Shown here one piece after another: positions 23,457-32,673 of a stretch of DNA of 64,000 nt (its first letter is position 1; each line of letters opens with the position of its first letter). Origin of the DNA: Terriglobia bacterium (GTDB lineage Bacteria; Acidobacteriota; Terriglobia; 20CM-2-55-15); NCBI GenBank assembly GCA_963664115.2, contig CAXWPJ010000009.1, positions 512,001-576,000 on the forward strand. The letters run 5' to 3'. The translations under genes and the position numbers were made by a program. Under the pieces are notes generated by a model. That model searched no databases and was not told the origin of the DNA. It worked only from the letters and a program-made list of their open reading frames with translations.

Positions 23457-23573
23457 GGGAATTCCGCTCCACGTAACAGCCAGAATCCGCTGGCTTTGCC
23501 TAACGGGACCAAATTCCACCGTCCCGTTAGGCAGAAAATGTCCCGTTAGGCAGAAATTCAGGGGTAAGTTTTT

Positions 23574-23831
23574 TCACTTGCCAGCGCCGGTGGCGTCGCC
23601 GTCGATGGTGTTAAGAACGCCGATGAACGCAGATTCGGTAAGACCGGCTTCTTTCAAGGCGTAATTGATAATTTCGAAACTGGCGTAGTCGCCAATCTTC
23701 GGGAGGATGATCGTGGAATGTCCCCGCACCATAGCCCAGTTCATCTCGCTTTCGCGGTCAACTGTATATCCAATCTGATCTAATACTGCCTTGAGACGTT
23801 CCGGGGATTGCGGCGCGAGGGGCGTAGGCAA
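23574..23831 (-). CDS. HicA-fold toxin-like protein
   Basis: LKAVLDQIGYTVDRE...IILP...IINYALKEAGLTESAF pattern; immediately downstream of a hicB-like gene. Confidence 0.65.
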   Translation of the reverse strand: MPTPLAPQSPERLKAVLDQIGYTVDRESEMNWAMVRGHSTIILPKIGDYASFEIINYALKEAGLTESAFIGVLNTIDGDATGAGK

Positions 23832-23835
23832 TGAG

Positions 23836-24171
23836 CTATGCCGCCATTGTCATCGGCACATCGAATTCATATACCTGATATTGCTCGTCGACACCGACGA
23901 ATTCGCCCTCATCTGGAGCGTTGCTTGCGCCGCTGAATCCAAGGGCTTGTAGGGTGTCCTCAAAGAGTCCCCGGTCATACAGCGAACCAATATAAAGTTG
24001 GATCGCATCGACCAGTGATTCCTTCGCTTGATCTGCCGTCATCCCCTGGGAATAGATTCCCAATCTTGGGCAATACGAGACGAACACCTTTGCATCTTCG
24101 TCTTTGCGAATTCCGCCTTTCAAACTAAAACTAATCATCGCTGCACTCCTGCACCCCTCAGGTGCAAACAT
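23836..24171 (-). CDS. HicB-family antitoxin
   Basis: FVSYCPRLGIYSQGMTADQAKESLVDAIQLY. Confidence 0.8.
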   Translation of the reverse strand: MFAPEGCRSAAMISFSLKGGIRKDEDAKVFVSYCPRLGIYSQGMTADQAKESLVDAIQLYIGSLYDRGLFEDTLQALGFSGASNAPDEGEFVGVDEQYQVYEFDVPMTMAA

Positions 24172-24388
24172 ATTAGAGACTGGAAACCTTCAATTATATC
24201 CGACAAACACGAAAGCGCCAGACTCAAACACAAAGAAAGGCCAAACCTGCCATTCGGGAGGTTCAACTCCTTATTTATGTTAAATACGAGTCTTCGTCAA
24301 CCAAAATAAGTGAAATTTGTACGTTATACGGAAATGAGTTCTGAGAGCGTCTAGACATGATCTGTCAAACCTTTCTCCATCACCGGCG

Positions 24389-25639
24389 TTAACCAAATTC
24401 CCCATTGGGCAGAAAAGTTGGGTCGATCCCAAGCTCGAACATCTCGTGAATCAGGACAACAAGGTTGTGACATAGGATCTTGCACAGGGCCTCGTTGACC
24501 ATGGCCGTTTCTGACTTGGACCGAAGGCTGTCACCGAACTTCGCCTTTATCATGTGGAACGTAGTTTCGACATTGGATCGCTTGTGGTAGTGACTCAGGA
24601 ACTCATCCCGCCGGTACTGAAAGTAGTGATACATGCTCCGCCATGCCGCCGTTTTCGGCCAACCGTGCCGCTCCTCAGCACGCGGGAAGCTAATCGCACT
24701 GTTCTTCTTAAGGGCGATAAAGGGAGCGGCCCCCGCCTTCATCACTTGATAGACATTGTTGTAGGACAAATATCCTTTGTCGGCACTGACTTCCTCAACA
24801 TCAAACCCGCTGGTTGTTGTATCCAGAAGGCTCGGAAGCATGATTGAGTCGTGTGTGTTTCCGATCTCGACGGCGGTGACTATGTTTGTCTTCACGCCGC
24901 ACATGAGATGCGTCTTGATCCACTGGTGACGAAACCGCTCCTGTCCCCACTTGTGATCGAACCACCGCTCGAACTTCGATGTAGAGAAGCCCGAAGAATC
25001 CACTGCAAAGTCCGTTTCCACCGATGCCAGAGGAAGGGCTGAGGTTTCAATCAGCCGCTCTATGATGGGCCTCAGTTCCGGCTTTTCGAGGTAGTTGAAA
25101 ATGCTGTTGTAGTGTGGGACCTTCGAGATAAAGCCGTTTGCGTGAGACTGCCGAAGATCCGACATAAAGCGACGGCCCGATACGGTGCTGTAGACCTTGA
25201 ACGTCGCGGAAAAGATCGCGTCAGAGAGCGGGATACGGCGCTGTCCCTTGCCCGTCTGTGGGGGAGTCGGAACCAATTCACACAGGTTTCGAAGCAGCAC
25301 TTGGAACTGATCCTTCTCGTTTGTCTGAGCAGCGTTGTAGGACGGCCAGTCCTGCCGGTAAGTGGGCCGCTTGGTTGCGGTAACCGACTCAGGGATGGTT
25401 TTCGGCCCGTCCGGATTGTCCTGCCGTGCCCGGTAGATTTCGACTGCCAGCACGTGTTTGCACGGTTGCCGCCGTTCTTCGTAATCCAGGCACGTGCAAT
25501 GAGAGCTCTTCCCAAGGATCGTGACCGAGTATTTACCCGTCCCATACTGAGACGGAACCGACCATCGGCACTTATCCAGATTCGAGATACGAAACTTGTC
25601 GGCTATTTCGATAGCGTGTTGTTGTCTTACAGAGGTCAT
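24389..25639 (-). CDS. Transposase with N-terminal SWIM zinc finger and IS5-type DDE domain (intact)
   Basis: CTCLDY...PCKH; AVDSSGF, ADKGY, YHKRSNVETTFHMIK, CHNL. Confidence 0.9.
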   Translation of the reverse strand: MTSVRQQHAIEIADKFRISNLDKCRWSVPSQYGTGKYSVTILGKSSHCTCLDYEERRQPCKHVLAVEIYRARQDNPDGPKTIPESVTATKRPTYRQDWPSYNAAQTNEKDQFQVLLRNLCELVPTPPQTGKGQRRIPLSDAIFSATFKVYSTVSGRRFMSDLRQSHANGFISKVPHYNSIFNYLEKPELRPIIERLIETSALPLASVETDFAVDSSGFSTSKFERWFDHKWGQERFRHQWIKTHLMCGVKTNIVTAVEIGNTHDSIMLPSLLDTTTSGFDVEEVSADKGYLSYNNVYQVMKAGAAPFIALKKNSAISFPRAEERHGWPKTAAWRSMYHYFQYRRDEFLSHYHKRSNVETTFHMIKAKFGDSLRSKSETAMVNEALCKILCHNLVVLIHEMFELGIDPTFLPNGEFG

Positions 25640-25853
25640 TTAGCACTCAGCCTTTCTACGGGCCGTGCTAGAATTGACGTGGTTACCAAACCCGTCTTTC
25701 TGGCTTCGGCCTGAAGGATGCGCCCCGCTGACAGTTTGCGCTGCCAGTGGGGCTTTTTCTGTTTAACCATTACAATAAATCATTCTATGTTGACAATAAT
25801 ATTCTAGATCGTTACAATAAGTCAACCCAAATGGCTAAATACGGATAAAATTA

Positions 25854-26945
25854 ATGGCTCGAATGACTAAAAAGGAAAGGGAAGAGCTACGCGCTTTTAT
25901 CATTCAGAATGTCCGCGCCAACCCTGCGGATATTACGAACAAGATCACTGAGGCGTTCCCTATTTCACGGCAAACAGGGCACCGGCATCTCAATTACCTA
26001 GTGGAGGAAGGCATCCTTTCGGCCGTCGGACAAACCAAGGCCCGAAAATATGAACTCGTGTTGCTTGAATCATTTAGTGTTACCGCGGAGGTTACCGATG
26101 AACTTGAGGAGCATGTGGTGTTGCGAGACGCCGAGAAAACTCTGCTGGGAGTGCCGGAGAACGTGCGCAATATCTGTCGGCACGGTTTTACCGAAATGCT
26201 CAATAACGTGATTTCGCATTCTGGGTCTCAGGAGGCACGTATTGTCGTAGTAAGAACGGGGGCGGACATAACTATCTCAATCAAGGACACGGGAATCGGC
26301 ATTTTTCGCAAGATCCAGCAAGACTTTGATTTGCCAGATCCGCGCCAAGCACTCCTTGAACTCACCAAGGGAAAGCTCACTTCCGATTCCACAAAGCACA
26401 CTGGCGAAGGCATATTCTTCACGTCTCGAATGTTTGACGAGTTCATGATCGCTTCGGGCGAGCTTGATTTTTGTCGCTTCAACAAGCAAGACGACTGGTT
26501 CTTTCAGGTCGAGGAACGGAAAGAAATCTCCGGAACTTTAGTCTGGATGAGGATTGCCCTGACCGCGTCCCAAACAGACAAAGAAGTGTTCTTGCAATTC
26601 GCTCCCGAGGAAGCTGACTTCGGGTTTACAAGGACGCATGTTCCCATCAATTTAGCCGTCTATGAAGGCGAGAAACTAATATCGCGGTCTCAAGCTCGGC
26701 GTCTACTTGCACGTGTCGATAGATTCGCCGAAGTCATGTTGGATTTTCGAGGAGTCGCCAGCATTGGACAGCCGTTTGCTGACGAGACTTTCAGGGTATT
26801 CCAGAAGCAACATCCTGGAACACGACTCGTCCATATCAATGCCTCGGAAGATGTTGAGAATATGATCTCCCACGTGAAAGCAACGGAGGCGTTTGACGAA
26901 CTCCAAGCCACTCTCTTCGATGACACGTTGCATCCAGACGAATAG
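25854..26945 (+). CDS. HTH + HATPase + STAS-like (DUF4325) protein
   Basis: ISRQTGHRHL..LVEEG HTH; EMLNNVISHS, DTGIGI, GEGIFF; SRSQARR, LDFRGV..IGQPFADE.FRVF. Confidence 0.85.
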   Translation: MARMTKKEREELRAFIIQNVRANPADITNKITEAFPISRQTGHRHLNYLVEEGILSAVGQTKARKYELVLLESFSVTAEVTDELEEHVVLRDAEKTLLGVPENVRNICRHGFTEMLNNVISHSGSQEARIVVVRTGADITISIKDTGIGIFRKIQQDFDLPDPRQALLELTKGKLTSDSTKHTGEGIFFTSRMFDEFMIASGELDFCRFNKQDDWFFQVEERKEISGTLVWMRIALTASQTDKEVFLQFAPEEADFGFTRTHVPINLAVYEGEKLISRSQARRLLARVDRFAEVMLDFRGVASIGQPFADETFRVFQKQHPGTRLVHINASEDVENMISHVKATEAFDELQATLFDDTLHPDE

Positions 26946-26982
26946 GTGGCTTATTGAATTCCCGCAATGATCGCAAAAATGG

Positions 26983-27344
26983 GGTAGTGTCCTAATTTGA
27001 ATTCTCACCTTTGAAAGACAAGCCGACTTGCCGGCTCAGCTTAGGAAGGGAGGCTGGATATGGAAAATGTGACGGCTATTTTGACGCCAGAGGTAGTGGT
27101 AGCGGTTGTGTATATACTAACTCTCTTGGCAGCTTGGTGTTGGGCGGTCTATTTCCTAAAGGACAAGACTGACGCGCTCTCTGAAAGGTCATTGAATGTA
27201 GTCATCGCGTCCATGATCGGAGTTATAACCGCAGTTCTGGCGTTTGTGGGTGTGGTCGAAGGCGCGGCGATAATTGCTCTTCTATCGGCAATCGCTGGGT
27301 ATATTCTGGGTGCTTCAACCCGGAATCGAAATTAGGACACTACC
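26983..27344. mobile_element. Non-autonomous 362-bp MITE-like element with IS1-type ends and one passenger gene
   Basis: 16-bp perfect IR GGTAGTGTCCTAATTT; 8-bp DR AAAAATGG at 26975-26982 and 27345-27352. Confidence 0.9.
27060..27335 (+). CDS. Small 3-TM membrane protein
   Basis: GGAGG RBS; three hydrophobic helices ending LLSAIAGYILG; stop codon lies inside the right IR. Confidence 0.75.
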   Translation: MENVTAILTPEVVVAVVYILTLLAAWCWAVYFLKDKTDALSERSLNVVIASMIGVITAVLAFVGVVEGAAIIALLSAIAGYILGASTRNRN

Positions 27345-27380
27345 AAAAATGGCGATGCCAACGGTCGCAATGATCGGAAG

Positions 27381-27449
27381 AATCCCCCAGCGATGGAAGC
27401 GGGACTCACTGATCACGTTTGGACGCTGAACGAATTGATCGAGAGCTAA
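27381..27449 (+). pseudogene. C-terminal remnant of an IS1-related transposase
   Basis: Translates NPPAMEAGLTDHVWTLNELIES*, the TPAMxAGLTDHVW tail of that group. Confidence 0.7.
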
Positions 27450-27565
27450 AAAGCCCAACAGGTAGCGTTCGGCCCAATTCTAGCCACAATTAGTAGCACC
27501 GAACAAACATCGGGTATAATGCAAAAGGTCCCCCTGCCAGGGGACCTTTGAAAATCCGTCGAGGT

Positions 27566-27611
27566 CGGGAGATGGTAATTAGACTCTGACGGGAGATGGT
27601 AATTAGACTCT
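27566..27611. repeat. 22-bp direct repeat x2 (CGGGAGATGGTAATTAGACTCT), 24-bp period
   Basis: Exact copies at 27566-27587 and 27590-27611. Confidence 0.9.
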
Positions 27612-27721
27612 CCCATCATAGCGCCGTATGCGTGATCCCGTCAATCTCTTCTCTACCCGAAGTTCGCCCGGATCGCGCTGTGGTCTTAGTGCGGATGGGC
27701 TTTAATTAGGAAGACAGGAAA

Positions 27722-27994
27722 ATGAAACCTTATGAAGTTACTTACGATCTAAGAAAACCCGGACAGAACTATGATGGTCTGATTGAACGGCTACAGCAAT
27801 TGAAGGCTGTTCGAGTGGAGCAATCCACATGGCTAATGAGAAGCACTTCGCTTGCGCTTGATATAGCCAACGACCTGATGAGGTTTATGGACAAGAACGA
27901 CAGGCTTCTTGTCGCCGAGATCGTGCCGTCCAACACGGCATGGTACAACCTGCTGGTTACTAGTGATCAGATCAATCAGAAGCTCGCTTCCTGA
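27722..27994 (+). CDS. Small Cas2/VapD-like ferredoxin-fold protein (often labelled SinR family)
   Basis: YEVTYDL..PGQNY..L, QSTWL, MDKNDRLLV. Confidence 0.65.
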   Translation: MKPYEVTYDLRKPGQNYDGLIERLQQLKAVRVEQSTWLMRSTSLALDIANDLMRFMDKNDRLLVAEIVPSNTAWYNLLVTSDQINQKLAS

Positions 27995-28005
27995 TTCGAT
28001 CCGAA

Positions 28006-28036
28006 GGCCAGCGGGGGCTTCGGTCTTCGCTGGCCT
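28006..28036 (+). terminator. Hairpin after the Cas2-like gene
   Basis: AGGCCAGCGGGGGC-TTCG-GTCTTCGCTGGCCT stem-loop; no clear U tract. Confidence 0.55.
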
Positions 28037-28068
28037 GAAATCTTCGATGTTGTAAACATTCATTGAGT

Positions 28069-28100
28069 GTCTTATATCACAAGGGTCTTATATCACAAGG
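28069..28100. repeat. 16-bp tandem repeat x2 (GTCTTATATCACAAGG)
   Basis: Exact copies at 28069-28084 and 28085-28100. Confidence 0.85.
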
Positions 28101-28141
28101 GCCAATCTAGCGGACCATCACCGAGATTTCCCCCGATCTAG

Positions 28142-29985
28142 GCCCAAAACAAGCGCATAACCAGTCCGCCGAGGCCCAGTTCGCGCCGATAGAATTCGAG
28201 GCATAGAATCCCGTTCCCGGATGGCCTGTTCCAGGTATCGAGTTTCTGTTGAATCTGTTTCAGTTCAGCCTCGCTGGTGTTGGACGGTTGACAGAAACCG
28301 GGACCTCGATCGCCCGGGCTCAGAGTCATGATCGGGTCAACATCGCAGAGGCTGACGCAACACATCCACCCCGCGGAACAAGACCGGCAACCACCGGTTC
28401 CAGGCCAGGATCCGGAACAGAATGCGCCGCCCGGTGCGCACGAGTTGGCACGGCACAAGCATGAAAGCGTTCAAGAAGGTTTTGAACTCCATGCGCAGCA
28501 CGGTTTGCTTCTCAGCCTGATATTTTTGGCCCCAACGTCCGGTTTCGGGAAGCAGCAATGCAAACCACGCTTTCAGTGTCCAGGCCAGTGACGCGATCAC
28601 CATGTAGGCCCAGTTGCTGGTCTGATCTCCGACCGGCATCCGCAACGCCTGAACGCCGTTCTTCAACTGCTCAATGAGATTCTCCTGATTGCACCGTTGA
28701 TTGGCACGCATCACAATCTGGTCGGCCGGATCCGAACGGTTGGTAATGTAGAAGAAGTACCGGATGTCGTCAAACAACACCTGCTCTCCTTTGGCCACCG
28801 ACAGATTCTTCCGCACCACGACGACACGGTAGTCCCGATCGCAGGCTCCGGGTCGATACCGAAACTCGGCCACATCCTCACCCTGCAAGCGGATATTGTC
28901 GAAACCGCGCTGCCGAACGATCTCTTCCTTCACGTTGTCGGGACGTTGGCGCGGTTCGGTCGCCACGTCGTATTTCGCGGGCCGTTCCAGGCGCTTCCAC
29001 TGGCGCGGCTCCAGTTCATCGGCCCGGGCCTTCAGGTTCGCCATCGCGTCAATCCCGAATATGAAACCCACCTGCTGGTCGTCCCATCCGTCCAGATGCC
29101 GGGTCTGGCTGAAGTCCGTGTCCCCGCGCAGCAGGATCTGGCGAAACCCCGCATGCCGGCACAATGCGATGGCTTGGTCGAACCGGACCGCGGCTCCTTC
29201 ATGCGACGGCCGGTTGCCGCTACGATTGACCAGATACAGCGGTTCGGCGGTGTTGGCCAGCGAGATCATCAGCGGGTGATATCCCCACGTCCCGTCGTAG
29301 GCCACGTCCATCCCTTGCTTGCATTCCCCCGTGGTTTCGGCCAGTGTCCCGTCCGCGTCCAACACCGCTTCTTCGAAAAACGCCGCCGGTTGCTGTCGCC
29401 AGACTCCGAGCCGGACTTGATTGGTTGCCTCCATCAGACACTCCACGTCGTCGGCCTCGAATCTCCGGCAGAAGTCTCCCGCCGTCGTCGGATCCGGAAT
29501 CCGTTGCGCTCCCAGCGCATCCAGATACACCGCATCGTTGCGCCGCAGTTCGATGTCTTCCAGGCACGTTCCTCCGCTCAAGGCGTTGTAGGCGATGTTC
29601 AGCACGTGATCCGACTCGTGATACGGCAGGTGCCGCTTCAACACATGCACGCCCTTGTCGATGGCTTCGATCAGCCCGGTCCGCCGCGCCACCAGTTGCA
29701 TCGTCCCGATACCACCAACCGATGTGCCCCGCGTCCGCTCTCCCATCTCGTACTGAATGTTGCTCGCCGAAAACATCGGCTCTACCTGATCCGTCCAATG
29801 CCGGTCCCCAAGCCGACGTTCGATTCGCCGCTTGCGGTTCCTCATGTTCTTGCGCGTATAATCGTTCATCTGAAATGCCTCCTTTTCCGAAGAATCTGTT
29901 CAAGGTTTTTTTCGCACGGAGAGGGGGCATTTCGGGTACTTCCGCTCTTATTGCACTATCATTTCCTCGTCAATCACGCCAGGGT
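28142..29985 (-). mobile_element. IS1380-family element, copy 2, nested in transposon A
   Basis: CTAG on both flanks; near-identical to copy 1; right IR lacks 5 bp (TTGTT). Confidence 0.92.
28337..29869 (-). CDS. IS1380-family DDE transposase
   Basis: Same 510-aa translation as 8514-10046. Confidence 0.92.
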   Translation of the reverse strand: MNDYTRKNMRNRKRRIERRLGDRHWTDQVEPMFSASNIQYEMGERTRGTSVGGIGTMQLVARRTGLIEAIDKGVHVLKRHLPYHESDHVLNIAYNALSGGTCLEDIELRRNDAVYLDALGAQRIPDPTTAGDFCRRFEADDVECLMEATNQVRLGVWRQQPAAFFEEAVLDADGTLAETTGECKQGMDVAYDGTWGYHPLMISLANTAEPLYLVNRSGNRPSHEGAAVRFDQAIALCRHAGFRQILLRGDTDFSQTRHLDGWDDQQVGFIFGIDAMANLKARADELEPRQWKRLERPAKYDVATEPRQRPDNVKEEIVRQRGFDNIRLQGEDVAEFRYRPGACDRDYRVVVVRKNLSVAKGEQVLFDDIRYFFYITNRSDPADQIVMRANQRCNQENLIEQLKNGVQALRMPVGDQTSNWAYMVIASLAWTLKAWFALLLPETGRWGQKYQAEKQTVLRMEFKTFLNAFMLVPCQLVRTGRRILFRILAWNRWLPVLFRGVDVLRQPLRC

Positions 29986-30085
29986 CTAGGTTGACTCTTC
30001 CGTTGGGCAGATCGTTGTTTTGTTGGGCAAATTGCTCCCGTTAGGCAAAGCCGAATCCGCTGGCTTTGCCCGAAAAGTAAATAAG

Positions 30086-31303
30086 TCAGGCTTTTATTCG
30101 GGCAGCCGGGGTTTCTGCCCAGAAAATCGGCTCGACCCCTAGTTCGTGAGCTTCATGAATCAGGACTACAAGATTGTGACAAAGAATCTTGCACAGTGCT
30201 TCGTTGACCAGTGCGCGGTCGGTCTTCGACCGAAGCGAGTCTCCGAACTTCGCCTTAATCATGTGGAACGTGGTTTCGACGTTCGAGCGCTTGTGATAGT
30301 GCTCCAGAAACTCGTCGCGCTTCAACTGGAAGTAGTAGTACATGTCGTTCCAGACCTTGCTGCCGTTCCTGGCTGGCTGTTGGTCTTGAGCGCATGAATT
30401 GGCTCCAGCATTAGTCACCTTCTGCACGTTGTTCGCACTCAGGTAAGCTTGTCAGCGGAAACCTCACGCATCGTGAAGTTCTTGACGTAGATTCCAGCAT
30501 GTCGGGCAGCAACGGTGCATCGTGGGCCTCGCGGCCTCGGATCTCGACGGCTGTAACGATGTTGGTTTTGACGCCGCACATGATGTGGACCTTCACCCAG
30601 ATTCGCTTGAACCGATCGGCCGTGCTTGTGATCGAACCACCTCTCGAATCGGCAGGTGGAGAAGCCGGATGTCCACGGCGAAATCGCGCTCAACCGATTT
30701 CAGAGGAAGGCTCGACTCCGTAATCAGGTTCTCGAGAATCTGAGTCAACCCTGGGTTGTCCATCAAGCCGAAGATCGAGTTGTAGTGGGGAAGTTGGTTC
30801 AGAAACCCCGAAGCTTTGGCATTCCGAAGATCGCTCATGAACCGGCGACCGGAAACGGTCGAGTACCTTGAACGTTGCCGCAAATACCGAATCGGAAATC
30901 GGCAGCGCCGGTCGCCCGCGGCCTGTCCGCTTCGGCTGCTTCAATCCCTGACACAGGCCCCAGAGAAGCATCTGAAACTCGTCCTTCTCGTTGGTTTGCG
31001 CCGCGTTGTAGGCCGTCCAGTCCTGCTTGTAGGTTGGTCTCTTGGTAGCGTAGATGGCCTCTGTGACCTTTGGTCTGTGAGTCGGGCTTTCCTGTTGCAC
31101 TCTGAAGAACTCGACCGCCATGACATGCTTGCACGGCTGTCGGCGCTTCTCCCAGGCAGGTGCAGTGGGAGTTTTGGCCGAGGATCGTGACCGAATAGCG
31201 TCCAGTACCGTACTGCGAAGGAACCAGCCAGCGGCATGCGCCTGGGACTGATACGGAACTTATCCGCGATTTCGAGTGCGCGTTGTTTTCTGGGATTGTC
31301 CAC
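30086..31303 (-). pseudogene. SWIM+DDE transposase paralogue with multiple frameshifts
   Basis: Fragments WLVPSQYGTGRYSVTILG..SHCTCL, YNAAQTNEKDEF, VSGRRFMSDLR, FERWFDHK, HIMCGVKTNIVTAVE, YHKRSNVETTFHMIKAKFGD match 24389-25639. Confidence 0.9.
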
Positions 31304-31439
31304 GGTAGGTCTCCATACTTGATTCGCAAGGGCCGTGGACCTAAAATTGAGGTTGCTGGCCTGTACGGGTGTCACGAGCACCTTGCAGGTTTGTGGTCGC
31401 GCCGGATGCGCCAACATCCGGCGCGGCTATCTACAGGTT

Positions 31440-31527
31440 TGGCGGCGGGTGTGGGAATCGAACCCACGAGCCCCGAGGGACTACCCGGTTGTAAGCCGGG
31501 TCCGATAGACCTCTCTGGCAACCCGCC
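31440..31527 (-). tRNA. Class II (long variable arm) tRNA with anticodon TAC (Val) and a Ser-type body
   Basis: GGCGGGT-TG-CCAGAGAGGTCTATCGG-A-CCCGG-CTTACAA-CCGGG-TAGTCCCTCGGGGCTC-GTGGG-TTCGATT-CCCAC-ACCCGCC-G-CCA. Confidence 0.9.
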
Positions 31528-31546
31528 GTTAAACTCATTTCACTTC

Positions 31547-31951
31547 TCAGAACGGAAAGTCGTCGTCAGTGGCTTCCTTCACTATCCACTGGTAAAGAGT
31601 CTTGCCGGCTCTTTCGACTGGTTTGACCTCTCCCTGATCTTCCAGCCGTTTCAGCGTGGTGTGGATGACTGCAAGGGCGTTCTTGTATTTGTTGAGCGGA
31701 AACTCGCTGCTCTGCAGATGCCAAACGGTTGTGCTTGCAAGTAGGCTCTCTTTGAGCACCTCACGGATAGCATCAGTGATTGTCTCTTCTTCAAGGTCTT
31801 CACCTATGAGGCGCTCAGGCTGAGAACCGTCTTTCGCAAATCGCTTCGCTCCTGGTTTCTACAAGCCGAGCTGAGACTCTTCGTTCAGGAGTTCGTCGAG
31901 TTCAGATCTTGCGCCATCAAGTGTCTCTTCGTAATTGCGGTTGGCAGTCAT
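31547..31951 (-). CDS. Coiled-coil + winged-helix-like protein, apparently frameshifted
   Basis: MTANRNYEETLDGARSELDELL...ITDAIREVLKE...NALAVIHTTLKRLEDQGEV...GKTLYQW. Confidence 0.55.
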
Positions 31952-31970
31952 TATTTACATGGAATTTTAT

Positions 31971-32189
31971 ATGTCTGATACGAAAAAGTCAATGGAGGTT
32001 TTACATGGAGAATTACTTTTAAATCGTAATGTGTGTAAATGGAAGCAAGCCATTGAAGATGCAGAATTTATTGTTTTGGAACACCAAAGGAAAATTCGCG
32101 CATTAAGGCGGGCAATCCGTGTTTTTCGGGAAAATGCCGAAGAAGGAACTCCGTTGAGCGACCCGTTGGGCAGAAGCGCTAATCGTTAG
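31971..32189 (+). CDS. Small hypothetical coiled-coil protein at the right end of transposon B
   Basis: WKQAIEDAE...QRKIRALRRAIRVFRENAEEGTP; stop lies within the end repeats. Confidence 0.45.
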   Translation: MSDTKKSMEVLHGELLLNRNVCKWKQAIEDAEFIVLEHQRKIRALRRAIRVFRENAEEGTPLSDPLGRSANR

Positions 32190-32673
32190 GCAAATGGTTC
32201 CCGTTGGGCAAAGCCGAATCCGCTATGACGGACAACTTCTATGGATTTCGGTATTTCCTGCACCGCCGAGTCGGATAAACCACACATTTGATTGATAAAC
32301 TGATTTGGTATGGGATGTGCTCATTAAGGGCTGGGATGGCGACGAACCCGTTTGGCTGGTTAGCCAGGGAAGGCGTTCCGACACTCGGAGTCAGCATTTG
32401 AAGACGGGATGAGATGGGATGAAGATGATTGGAGGAGAGGGTGAGTGGGATGGTGGAGGCCTGATCAACTTATTCTCTCCCTTGTAGTTTATTAGCTAGA
32501 CCTGCCTTTTAGACCGGAATCTCAGTCCGGTCGGTTTCAGCAGATTCTTTAACAAACGCTTGCTGGCCTGCAATATAGTGTGTCGGTGGACGGCGCGCGA
32601 ATTCCGCAAGCGAAAGTCGCCCCGGCTTCCGTGGGGCATGTCCGCATGCAGCCAGTCAAACCCAGTTGAACGC

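Follow-up and report, generated by a model that had tools for sequence, protein, structure and literature searches.

Few cases of natural mistranslating bacterial tRNAs have been described, and their purpose is treated as open (PMC5389517, PMC11415595). The closest described counterparts of the tRNA gene examined below are the allo-tRNAs and the irregular tRNAs encoded as polycistrons (PMC5389517, Mukai et al., Nucleic Acids Res 45:2776; review, PMC7609411). In the accessible parts of the primary paper, these mismatched serine-type tRNAs are defined by 8/4 or 9/3 folds, combine a long variable arm and G73 with a non-serine anticodon, have predicted or demonstrated serine insertion, and occur in Acidobacteria near toxin-antitoxin genes; a single pseudogene there overlaps an ORF related to transposons, and possible missense suppression is also raised for irregular 7/5 tRNAs (PMC5389517). 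A second natural system is tRNA-ProX with its synthetase ProRSx in Streptomyces and Kitasatospora (PMC10404621, PMC11415595); it is of 7/5 type, its body and anticodon disagree, and it mistranslates and is toxic in E. coli, but its body is that of a proline tRNA, its anticodons start with A34, and a dedicated synthetase goes with it. Finally, the chemistry of a serine body under a foreign anticodon is shared with missense-suppressor tRNA-Ser, according to reports on Pro-to-Ser suppression in yeast (cited in PMC9976931) and Val-to-Ser suppression in Drosophila (PMC13643807); such engineered or mutant suppressors are laboratory constructs, whereas the tRNA considered here is natural, mobile and conserved.

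This tRNA gene lies within a bounded transposon, element B (Table 1), in the window, i.e., the whole 64,000-nt stretch of DNA that was analysed. ARAGORN called it tRNA-Val(TAC), and it matched Rfam family RF00005 at 48.6 bits (cut-off 29; E 2.4e-7); because its cloverleaf is ordinary, annotation tools report it as a plain tRNA-Val. Read from the sequence, the acceptor forms 7/7 pairs, among them G1:C72, G2:C71, C3:G70 and G4:C69, and both the anticodon stem and the T stem form 5/5, which makes a 7/5 branch with all 12 pairs; the D stem is weak (C10:G25, C11:G24, an A12xC23 mismatch, G13:U22). The anticodon loop is CU-UAC-AA, the variable arm (AGUCC/GGGCU, 5 bp) abuts C48, which pairs with G15, and the 3' end is G73-CCA. 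The first-pass annotation had drawn this cloverleaf correctly, from the stems, anticodon and 5-bp arm to the CCA, acceptor pairs and C11:G24, and had interpreted it as a serine-type body with a UAC anticodon, carried as transposon cargo and resembling allo-tRNAs; these parts have stood, whereas its decoy function is weakened at the family level and codon-level control of the transposase is unsupported, and its feature list lacked the atypical C3:G70, the partner winged-helix gene and the exchangeability of the tRNA slot.

Table 1. Features of element B and its target site, in window positions.
Feature	Coordinates	Strand	Remarks
Whole element B	30062..32215	.	ends are imperfect inverted repeats that start with GGCTTTGCCC
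9-bp target duplication, left copy	30053..30061	+	common to the upstream composite element
9-bp target duplication, right copy	32216..32224	+	
SWIM zinc-finger + DDE_Tnp_1 transposase	30086..31303	-	assembly has frameshifts at places where, by the short-read contigs, it lacks bases
12-bp GC-rich hairpin, no U-tract	31398..31425	-	between tRNA and transposase, z -4.5
tRNA gene, 7/5 cloverleaf, serine-type body, encoded CCA	31440..31527	-	anticodon UAC at 31491-31493
Coiled-coil + winged-helix gene	31547..31951	-	ends 19 nt before the tRNA; break near 31860 probably an assembly error
Sigma-70-like promoter match	31964..31992	-	10/12, 17-nt spacer, upstream of winged-helix gene; consensus match only
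Small divergent helical ORF, ~65 aa	31992..32189	+	conserved in tRNA-bearing elements

The tRNA shares with the allo-tRNAs the long arm, the discriminator (G73, where allo-tRNAs have G73 or U73) and a non-serine anticodon; it departs from them in its 7/5 branch and in its D arm, which is of the ordinary tRNA-Ser type (G18G19, weak stem) and not the tRNA-Sec-like long D stem with tetraloop. The supplement table of PMC5389517 contains UAC 13 times, always as a codon and never as an anticodon, and none of three short motifs of the window tRNA; the accessible text of that paper describes neither a winged-helix cassette nor a defined family of transposons, and its figures S5-S6 may show related loci. 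Transposons are likewise not mentioned in the accessible portions of PMC10404621 and PMC11415595, and no paper on mismatched 7/5 tRNAs as SWIM-DDE cargo was found in a search that covered subscription journals thinly. What appears new against the literature searched is therefore the canonical 7/5 version within a winged-helix cassette that is exchangeable and belongs to a family of bounded transposons.

The tRNA gene is single-copy in the host genome and lies at least 620 nt from either end of element B; it is thus cargo, and an att-site reading is ruled out. The ordinary tRNA set of the host is full, with Val(TAC), Val(GAC) and Val(CAC), five Leu, four Ser and a Sec tRNA, so that the transposon-borne gene is an extra; since only 1/47 ordinary host tRNAs has an encoded CCA in a regular-expression search, the CCA of the window tRNA also looks foreign.

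The anticodon was compared with short-read contigs. Those of runs X1 and X3, which may be the source of the window assembly, span element B in 2257 nt and are 73 nt longer than the assembly, which has 73 gap letters against them; assembly errors concentrate in this interval, and in the 12 indel rows listed, of 32, the insertions coincide with frame changes of the transposase. The apparent pseudogenes of element B are therefore probably artefacts, and its transposase, judged from these contigs, is probably intact. Between 31330 and 31720, by contrast, the X1 and X3 contigs show neither substitutions nor gaps. Run X5, from another study and a different strain, has 27 substitutions over 30062-31541 and diverges from the window just upstream of the tRNA; it covers the tRNA, where none of its three listed differences falls, a fourth, unlisted one being probably at a contig end. 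All three runs read UAC, and the TAA or TAG that would have made this a leucine anticodon was found in none, which rules out a sequencing error in the anticodon. That the gene is a functionless, decaying captured tRNA-Ser or a product of sequencing error is hardly credible and largely refuted: an error-rich assembly and one D-stem mismatch speak for it, but the same sequence occurs in the short-read contigs and in a second strain, pairing is complete in the acceptor, anticodon and T stems, relative L174 has the A12xC23 mismatch too, and the whole arrangement recurs across the family.

C11:G24 and the absence of an unpaired base before C48 are features of bacterial tRNA-Ser, and the window tRNA has both, together with the long arm, G1:C72, G2:C71 and G73. 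With anticodons masked, nearest-neighbour scoring against reference tRNAs gave best scores of Ser 108, Leu 78, Tyr 71, Sec 59.5 and Val 50, and 8/8 nearest references were tRNA-Ser; the reference set is Ser-rich and was pulled partly with the window tRNA itself, and its leave-one-out placement (42/43 Ser and 9/9 Leu correct, 120/165 overall) is reliable for long-arm and weak for short-arm tRNAs. In the part of PMC9976931 consulted, serine identity resides mainly in the variable arm and not in the anticodon, the serine set includes the long variable arm, G1:C72, G2:C71 and G73, and G73 blocks LeuRS and TyrRS; where tRNA-Leu has A73, the window tRNA thus carries a LeuRS antideterminant. Position 3 is the exception to the serine pattern: ordinary tRNA-Ser has A3 (37/40 parsed) or U3 (3/40), paired with U70 or A70, and never C3:G70 (0/40). 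The C3:G70 pair is shared with 7/55 kept metagenome relatives (among the matches listed), so it is the mark of a subgroup and not of recent decay; with the D-stem mismatch, it means that serylation may be poor.

Could the tRNA in practice serve valine, its odd body merely supplementing the decoding of rare GUA codons? Valine identity comprises A35, C36, A73, G3:C70 and U4:A69 in the same partial source (PMC9976931), and the main ValRS determinants A35 and C36 are present; GUA makes up just 9% of the valine codons of the host (GUA 7.2 and GUG 24.8 per 1000 codons), and two further UAC serine-body tRNAs exist, one before a DUF3800 gene (L213) and one before an IS1-like transposase (L220). Nothing else fits valine, since G73, C3:G70, G4:C69 and the long arm stand where tRNA-Val has A73, G3:C70, U4:A69 and a short loop, and the anticodon loop has A38 against C38 in the host tRNA-Val. 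As the host already owns a tRNA-Val(UAC), and as the same body elsewhere carries Leu, Tyr, Ile, Cys, Trp and stop anticodons, this explanation is very improbable.

Six-frame translation of element B yielded the transposase, the winged-helix protein and the small ORF only; in having no synthetase and a winged-helix partner, the element differs from the tRNA-ProX system. The small ORF had no family match, and no plasmid match was found. The best NCBIfam match of the transposase family is NF033579 (IS5 family), reached by three intact members with 105-125 bits against a cut-off of 140. Complete elements could be delimited at 29/86 transposase loci; they measure 1.8-5.3 kb, carry varied cargo, and have GGCTTTG ends and 9-bp duplications. 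The ends and duplication of element B are akin to those of the IS903 group of the IS5 family, with which the DDE_Tnp_1 transposase is also shared; the sub-threshold NF033579 match, the extra N-terminal SWIM zinc finger and the varied cargo, tRNA cassettes included, set the family apart. Most family members transpose without a tRNA, and the cargo of tRNA-less members includes an RmrTA toxin-antitoxin system and methyltransferases.

Element B has a tandem neighbour with the same 9-bp duplication, the composite element 23492-30052, which is preceded by a third copy of the target 9-mer (23483-23491) and holds an intact SWIM-DDE transposase, an ATPase/DUF4325 gene, an IS1380 transposase and remnants of IS1-like elements; the right 1.9 kb of this neighbour has a 99.7% copy on contig C10, and a putative HicAB-like pair lies at 23574-24171. 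Adjoining the IS1-like remnants, a 362-nt unit (26983-27344), in which inverted repeats of 22 nt enclose a small membrane ORF, looks like a non-autonomous cassette. Another tandem array of two SWIM-DDE elements (L271, G231:C26:14000-24000) has a target 9-mer resembling that of the window, which suggests a target preference; its second element carries a CGC-anticodon tRNA without G3:U70.

The tRNA cassette was followed along three routes of entry. Starting from the window tRNA, blastn in 401 genomes recovered L003, which has the same body with anticodon TAA, and L015, with TAT, both in the same gene order, and a search pattern describing serine-type bodies whose middle anticodon base is A or T matched 4/401 genomes (three of them next to this transposase), 26 viral loci and at least 120 places in metagenomes. 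Of these, 80 were listed and 55 kept, the 25 dropped rows being 10 ordinary or loop-deleted Ser-TGA tRNAs, 6 misparsed, 1 Tyr-like and 8 phage-array cases. Among these listed matches, a transposase lay within 812 nt at 15/55 kept loci (IS1-like 8, IS1595 5, SWIM 2; eight of the 15 were themselves search seeds, named by Pfam), compared with 1/25 dropped and 0/26 ordinary tRNA loci; the other 40/55, many of them on short contigs, had none of these transposases. The 26 viral loci showed neither a SWIM transposase nor a winged-helix match. Starting from the transposase, blind to the anticodon, 11 CCA-ending tRNAs were found upstream on the same strand at 10/78 loci and none downstream (0/83); ARAGORN and Rfam (Rfam on 20 loci) raised the tRNA-bearing loci to 14, of the lowered-threshold ARAGORN calls, which are mostly noise, only upstream same-strand ones with clean folds being kept. 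The homologues next to SWIM-DDE transposases whose search the first-pass annotation had suggested thus exist. A winged-helix profile, seeded solely from loci found through their tRNA, matched 12/14 tRNA-bearing but 1/62 other transposase loci, these being kin and not independent. The third route, which started from the winged-helix profile, gave 25 loci in 17/301 genomes. At all eight that have this transposase (six known, two new) a tRNA lies between the genes, the new ones carrying a Leu-type ochre tRNA and a Ser-type CCA tRNA; at two others the transposase is missing but a mismatched tRNA is present (in one case detected by relaxed ARAGORN alone), at another two the tRNA is unrelated or on the opposite strand, and at the remaining 13 no tRNA was detected.

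Variable arms of ~30-45 nt occur in the cassette or pattern tRNAs of L034, L040, L055, L146, L147 and L301, which default ARAGORN missed. Serine-body tRNAs with Leu, Phe, Ile or Tyr anticodons, mostly lone, were seen on phage or prophage contigs (L120-L122, L125, L129, L131, L134, L140-L143), and in the phage tRNA arrays L119, L124, L132, L136 and L137 there is a tRNA with a long variable arm, a GTT anticodon and G73, whose sequence would allow either a genuine Asn tRNA or charging with serine.

The partner of the tRNA belongs to a large protein family (2753 clusters at E <= 1e-10) that has no NCBIfam or PADLOC family and scattered single-member Pfam matches only. In the AlphaFold2 model of a homologue (pLDDT 85.8), a helix of 50 residues leads into a winged helix; Foldseek returned no match at E <= 0.001 for the model, the nearest solved folds being Fur/Zur/PerR-type DNA-binding domains and others with weak E-values. 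From fold and position, the protein is predicted to be an autorepressor of the cassette. No operator repeat stood out: a 10-nt repeat in the window was equalled by 15/100 shuffles, and seven relatives yielded nothing. Sigma-70-like sites number 3 against 0.6 expected, and the candidate promoter in Table 1 is predicted from its sequence to drive the winged-helix gene, the tRNA and perhaps the transposase.

Disagreement between body and anticodon runs through the family: in 23/24 parsed cassette tRNAs the anticodon is at odds with the isotype assigned by nearest neighbour, a test that is weak for the short-arm ones. At the same time, the fold is maintained. Among 20 transposase-linked serine-body relatives (of 21 tried), paired cells amount to 139/140 in the acceptor, 92/100 in the anticodon stem and 100/100 in the T stem, with part of the T arm and positions 71-73 fixed by the search pattern, and acceptor double changes are compensatory in 49/49 cases; these alignments point to selection on the fold. 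What occupies the slot changes readily. A quick tree built from 76 transposases requires 10 changes of the tRNA label, and different bodies sit on sister enzymes; an element of the same genus, 86.75% identical to element B over 1434 nt, has a short-arm U73 tRNA with CGU instead, and the anticodons of the window tRNA and L174 differ at all three positions. The related loci are not independent, and the GCA-anticodon cases come from one or two clades. The genome G015 holds three copies of a UAU element, and the two examined differ in their 9-bp duplication; such tRNAs therefore move with their element.

The position of the gene invites an explanation without translation, in which the tRNA is a processing or insulating signal of a winged-helix/tRNA/transposase transcript: RNase P and 3' trimming would cut the transcript, the hairpin would protect or block the transposase part, and the tRNA itself, poorly charged, would be free to drift in its anticodon. 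The tRNA does follow the winged-helix stop by 19 nt and precedes a hairpin that recurs with other sequence at the same place in two relatives (z -5.6 in L003, -4.5 in L174); the stems stay conserved where anticodon and body do not, both C3:G70 and the weak D stem are unusual, and some allo-tRNAs are translation-inactive in the accessible text of PMC5389517. Yet drift from a serine ancestor should leave some cognates behind, and none of the long-arm cassette tRNAs that were found blind to the anticodon has a serine anticodon; serine anticodons are confined to short-arm bodies (L065, L269, L313). Cassette anticodon loops also mostly keep seven bases, U33 and a purine at 37, and most of the family transposes without any tRNA. 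We regard a processing role as a minor possibility.

A decoy or rescue function against anticodon nucleases or tRNA-targeting toxins, already raised in the first-pass annotation, would have the tRNA soak up the nuclease or keep ribosomes moving at valine codons with the wrong amino acid. Fast anticodon change, such as that between the window tRNA and L174, is in its favour, as are toxin-antitoxin genes beside relatives (Gp49/RelE-like genes flanking L196 and L220, NYN at L184) and the rarity of A34 (4/55 among the matches listed), as in natural tRNA sets. At the family level, however, ochre UUA and UAU are among the commonest anticodons (8/55 each, among the matches listed), and to our knowledge both are absent from ordinary bacterial tRNAs, so that they would mimic none. 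With no nuclease gene found in element B, and with A38 unlike the host tRNA-Val it would have to imitate, a decoy is unlikely.

The explanation we consider probable, by a modest degree, is that the tRNA is a serine-charged missense suppressor, kept down by its winged-helix neighbour and thus a conditional proteotoxic cargo. The winged-helix gene, the tRNA and perhaps the transposase would be co-transcribed and the tRNA then processed; the host SerRS would charge it with serine, perhaps weakly given C3:G70 and A12xC23; and the serylated tRNA would place serine at GUA and GUG valine codons, serine insertion at valine codons being what we infer as the best account of the window tRNA. At the frequency these two codons have in the host, their decoding would probably be harmful unless expression or charging is limited. 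The winged-helix protein may keep the tRNA off most of the time, and derepression in a new host, under stress or during phage infection could release errors across the whole proteome in a burst, slowing or killing the cell or raising its stress response. For this end any disagreement between body and anticodon would do, which explains the swapping in the slot, and a mismatch kept with any body and any anticodon, stops included, fits an error-making tRNA that is checked by its neighbour. Precedents, as far as the accessible text goes, point both ways: two Ser-identity allo-tRNAs with Leu anticodons inserted serine in E. coli and killed cells, and six allo-tRNA(UAU) species gave no suppression there (PMC5389517). 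General mistranslation is reported to induce an early SOS response in E. coli (10.1101/650846, preprint abstract), one possible benefit for the transposon. The purpose of the tRNA is the least certain step; that it is toxin-like cargo is plausible, somewhat short of an even chance. More tentatively still, at least three IS families may carry an exchangeable module in which a winged-helix repressor is joined to a tRNA selected to be wrong, akin to toxin-antitoxin or abortive-infection systems with a mistranslating tRNA as effector; the derepressed tRNA would be the toxin that corrupts the code of cell or phage, and anticodon swapping would diversify it. The cassette proteins matched no PADLOC defence model.

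If serine is inserted at the codons of the anticodon, the element's own genes might be attuned to it, either through a private code, with serine written as a valine codon, or through self-limiting damage at retained rare codons. The GCA-anticodon relatives would indeed strike the invariant SWIM cysteines, but private recoding is rejected: across nine transposases (L003 and L174 left out), 0/99 cells in serine-consensus columns hold the amino acid of the anticodon. Columns that track the anticodon do so for at best 2 anticodons in the transposases (shuffles 1-4) and 2-3 in the winged-helix genes (shuffles 1-5). Codon avoidance showed no consistent trend in 15 transposases or 26 winged-helix genes, and target codons are not significantly avoided in the element's own genes (36 vs 44.7 +/- 7.1, P 0.11). 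Element B and a sister with another anticodon use valine codons equally (GTA 1/1, GTG 6/6, over 400 codons), and the lone GTA of the element B transposase falls in a column that is valine in just 37% of rows. For codon-level regulation of the transposase by the tRNA there is thus neither a recoded column, nor one that tracks the anticodon beyond the shuffles, nor a difference in valine codon use, and the idea that the tRNA tunes its own enzyme is quite unlikely.

Should the serine-charged suppressor and its repressor prove to form such a module, it would be a natural, mobile source of codon ambiguity and a route for its sideways spread, which bears on genetic-code change and on codon-swap firewalls. 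With their ordinary cloverleaf, such mismatched tRNA genes are probably hidden in many genomes, given at least 120 metagenome and 26 viral matches to a narrow pattern. The compact 2.2-kb size of the bounded element and its defined partner gene make it testable in E. coli what a mobile element gains from a wrong tRNA.

Some further odd tRNAs deserve mention. Among the 55 kept loci, within the matches listed, the 1:72 pair is broken in 10/19 serine-body tRNAs with G34, which read common codons, and in 1/26 with U34 (P 0.0002, largely one clade); this is possibly an attenuation of the more harmful ones, to judge by sequence. The host genome itself has two more. At L268:3360-3445 (G000:C9:454859-454944), a tRNA with long variable arm, G73 and anticodon TAG lacks an encoded CCA, and 2-3 kb downstream lie putative HicB/HicA-like ORFs and an IS1-like transposase. 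At L269:3104-3178 (G000:C9:320103-320177), a short-arm body with the serine anticodon GCT sits just upstream of an IS1-like transposase that is split by another IS, with a divergent RelE-like/HTH pair, in a layout like that of L220.
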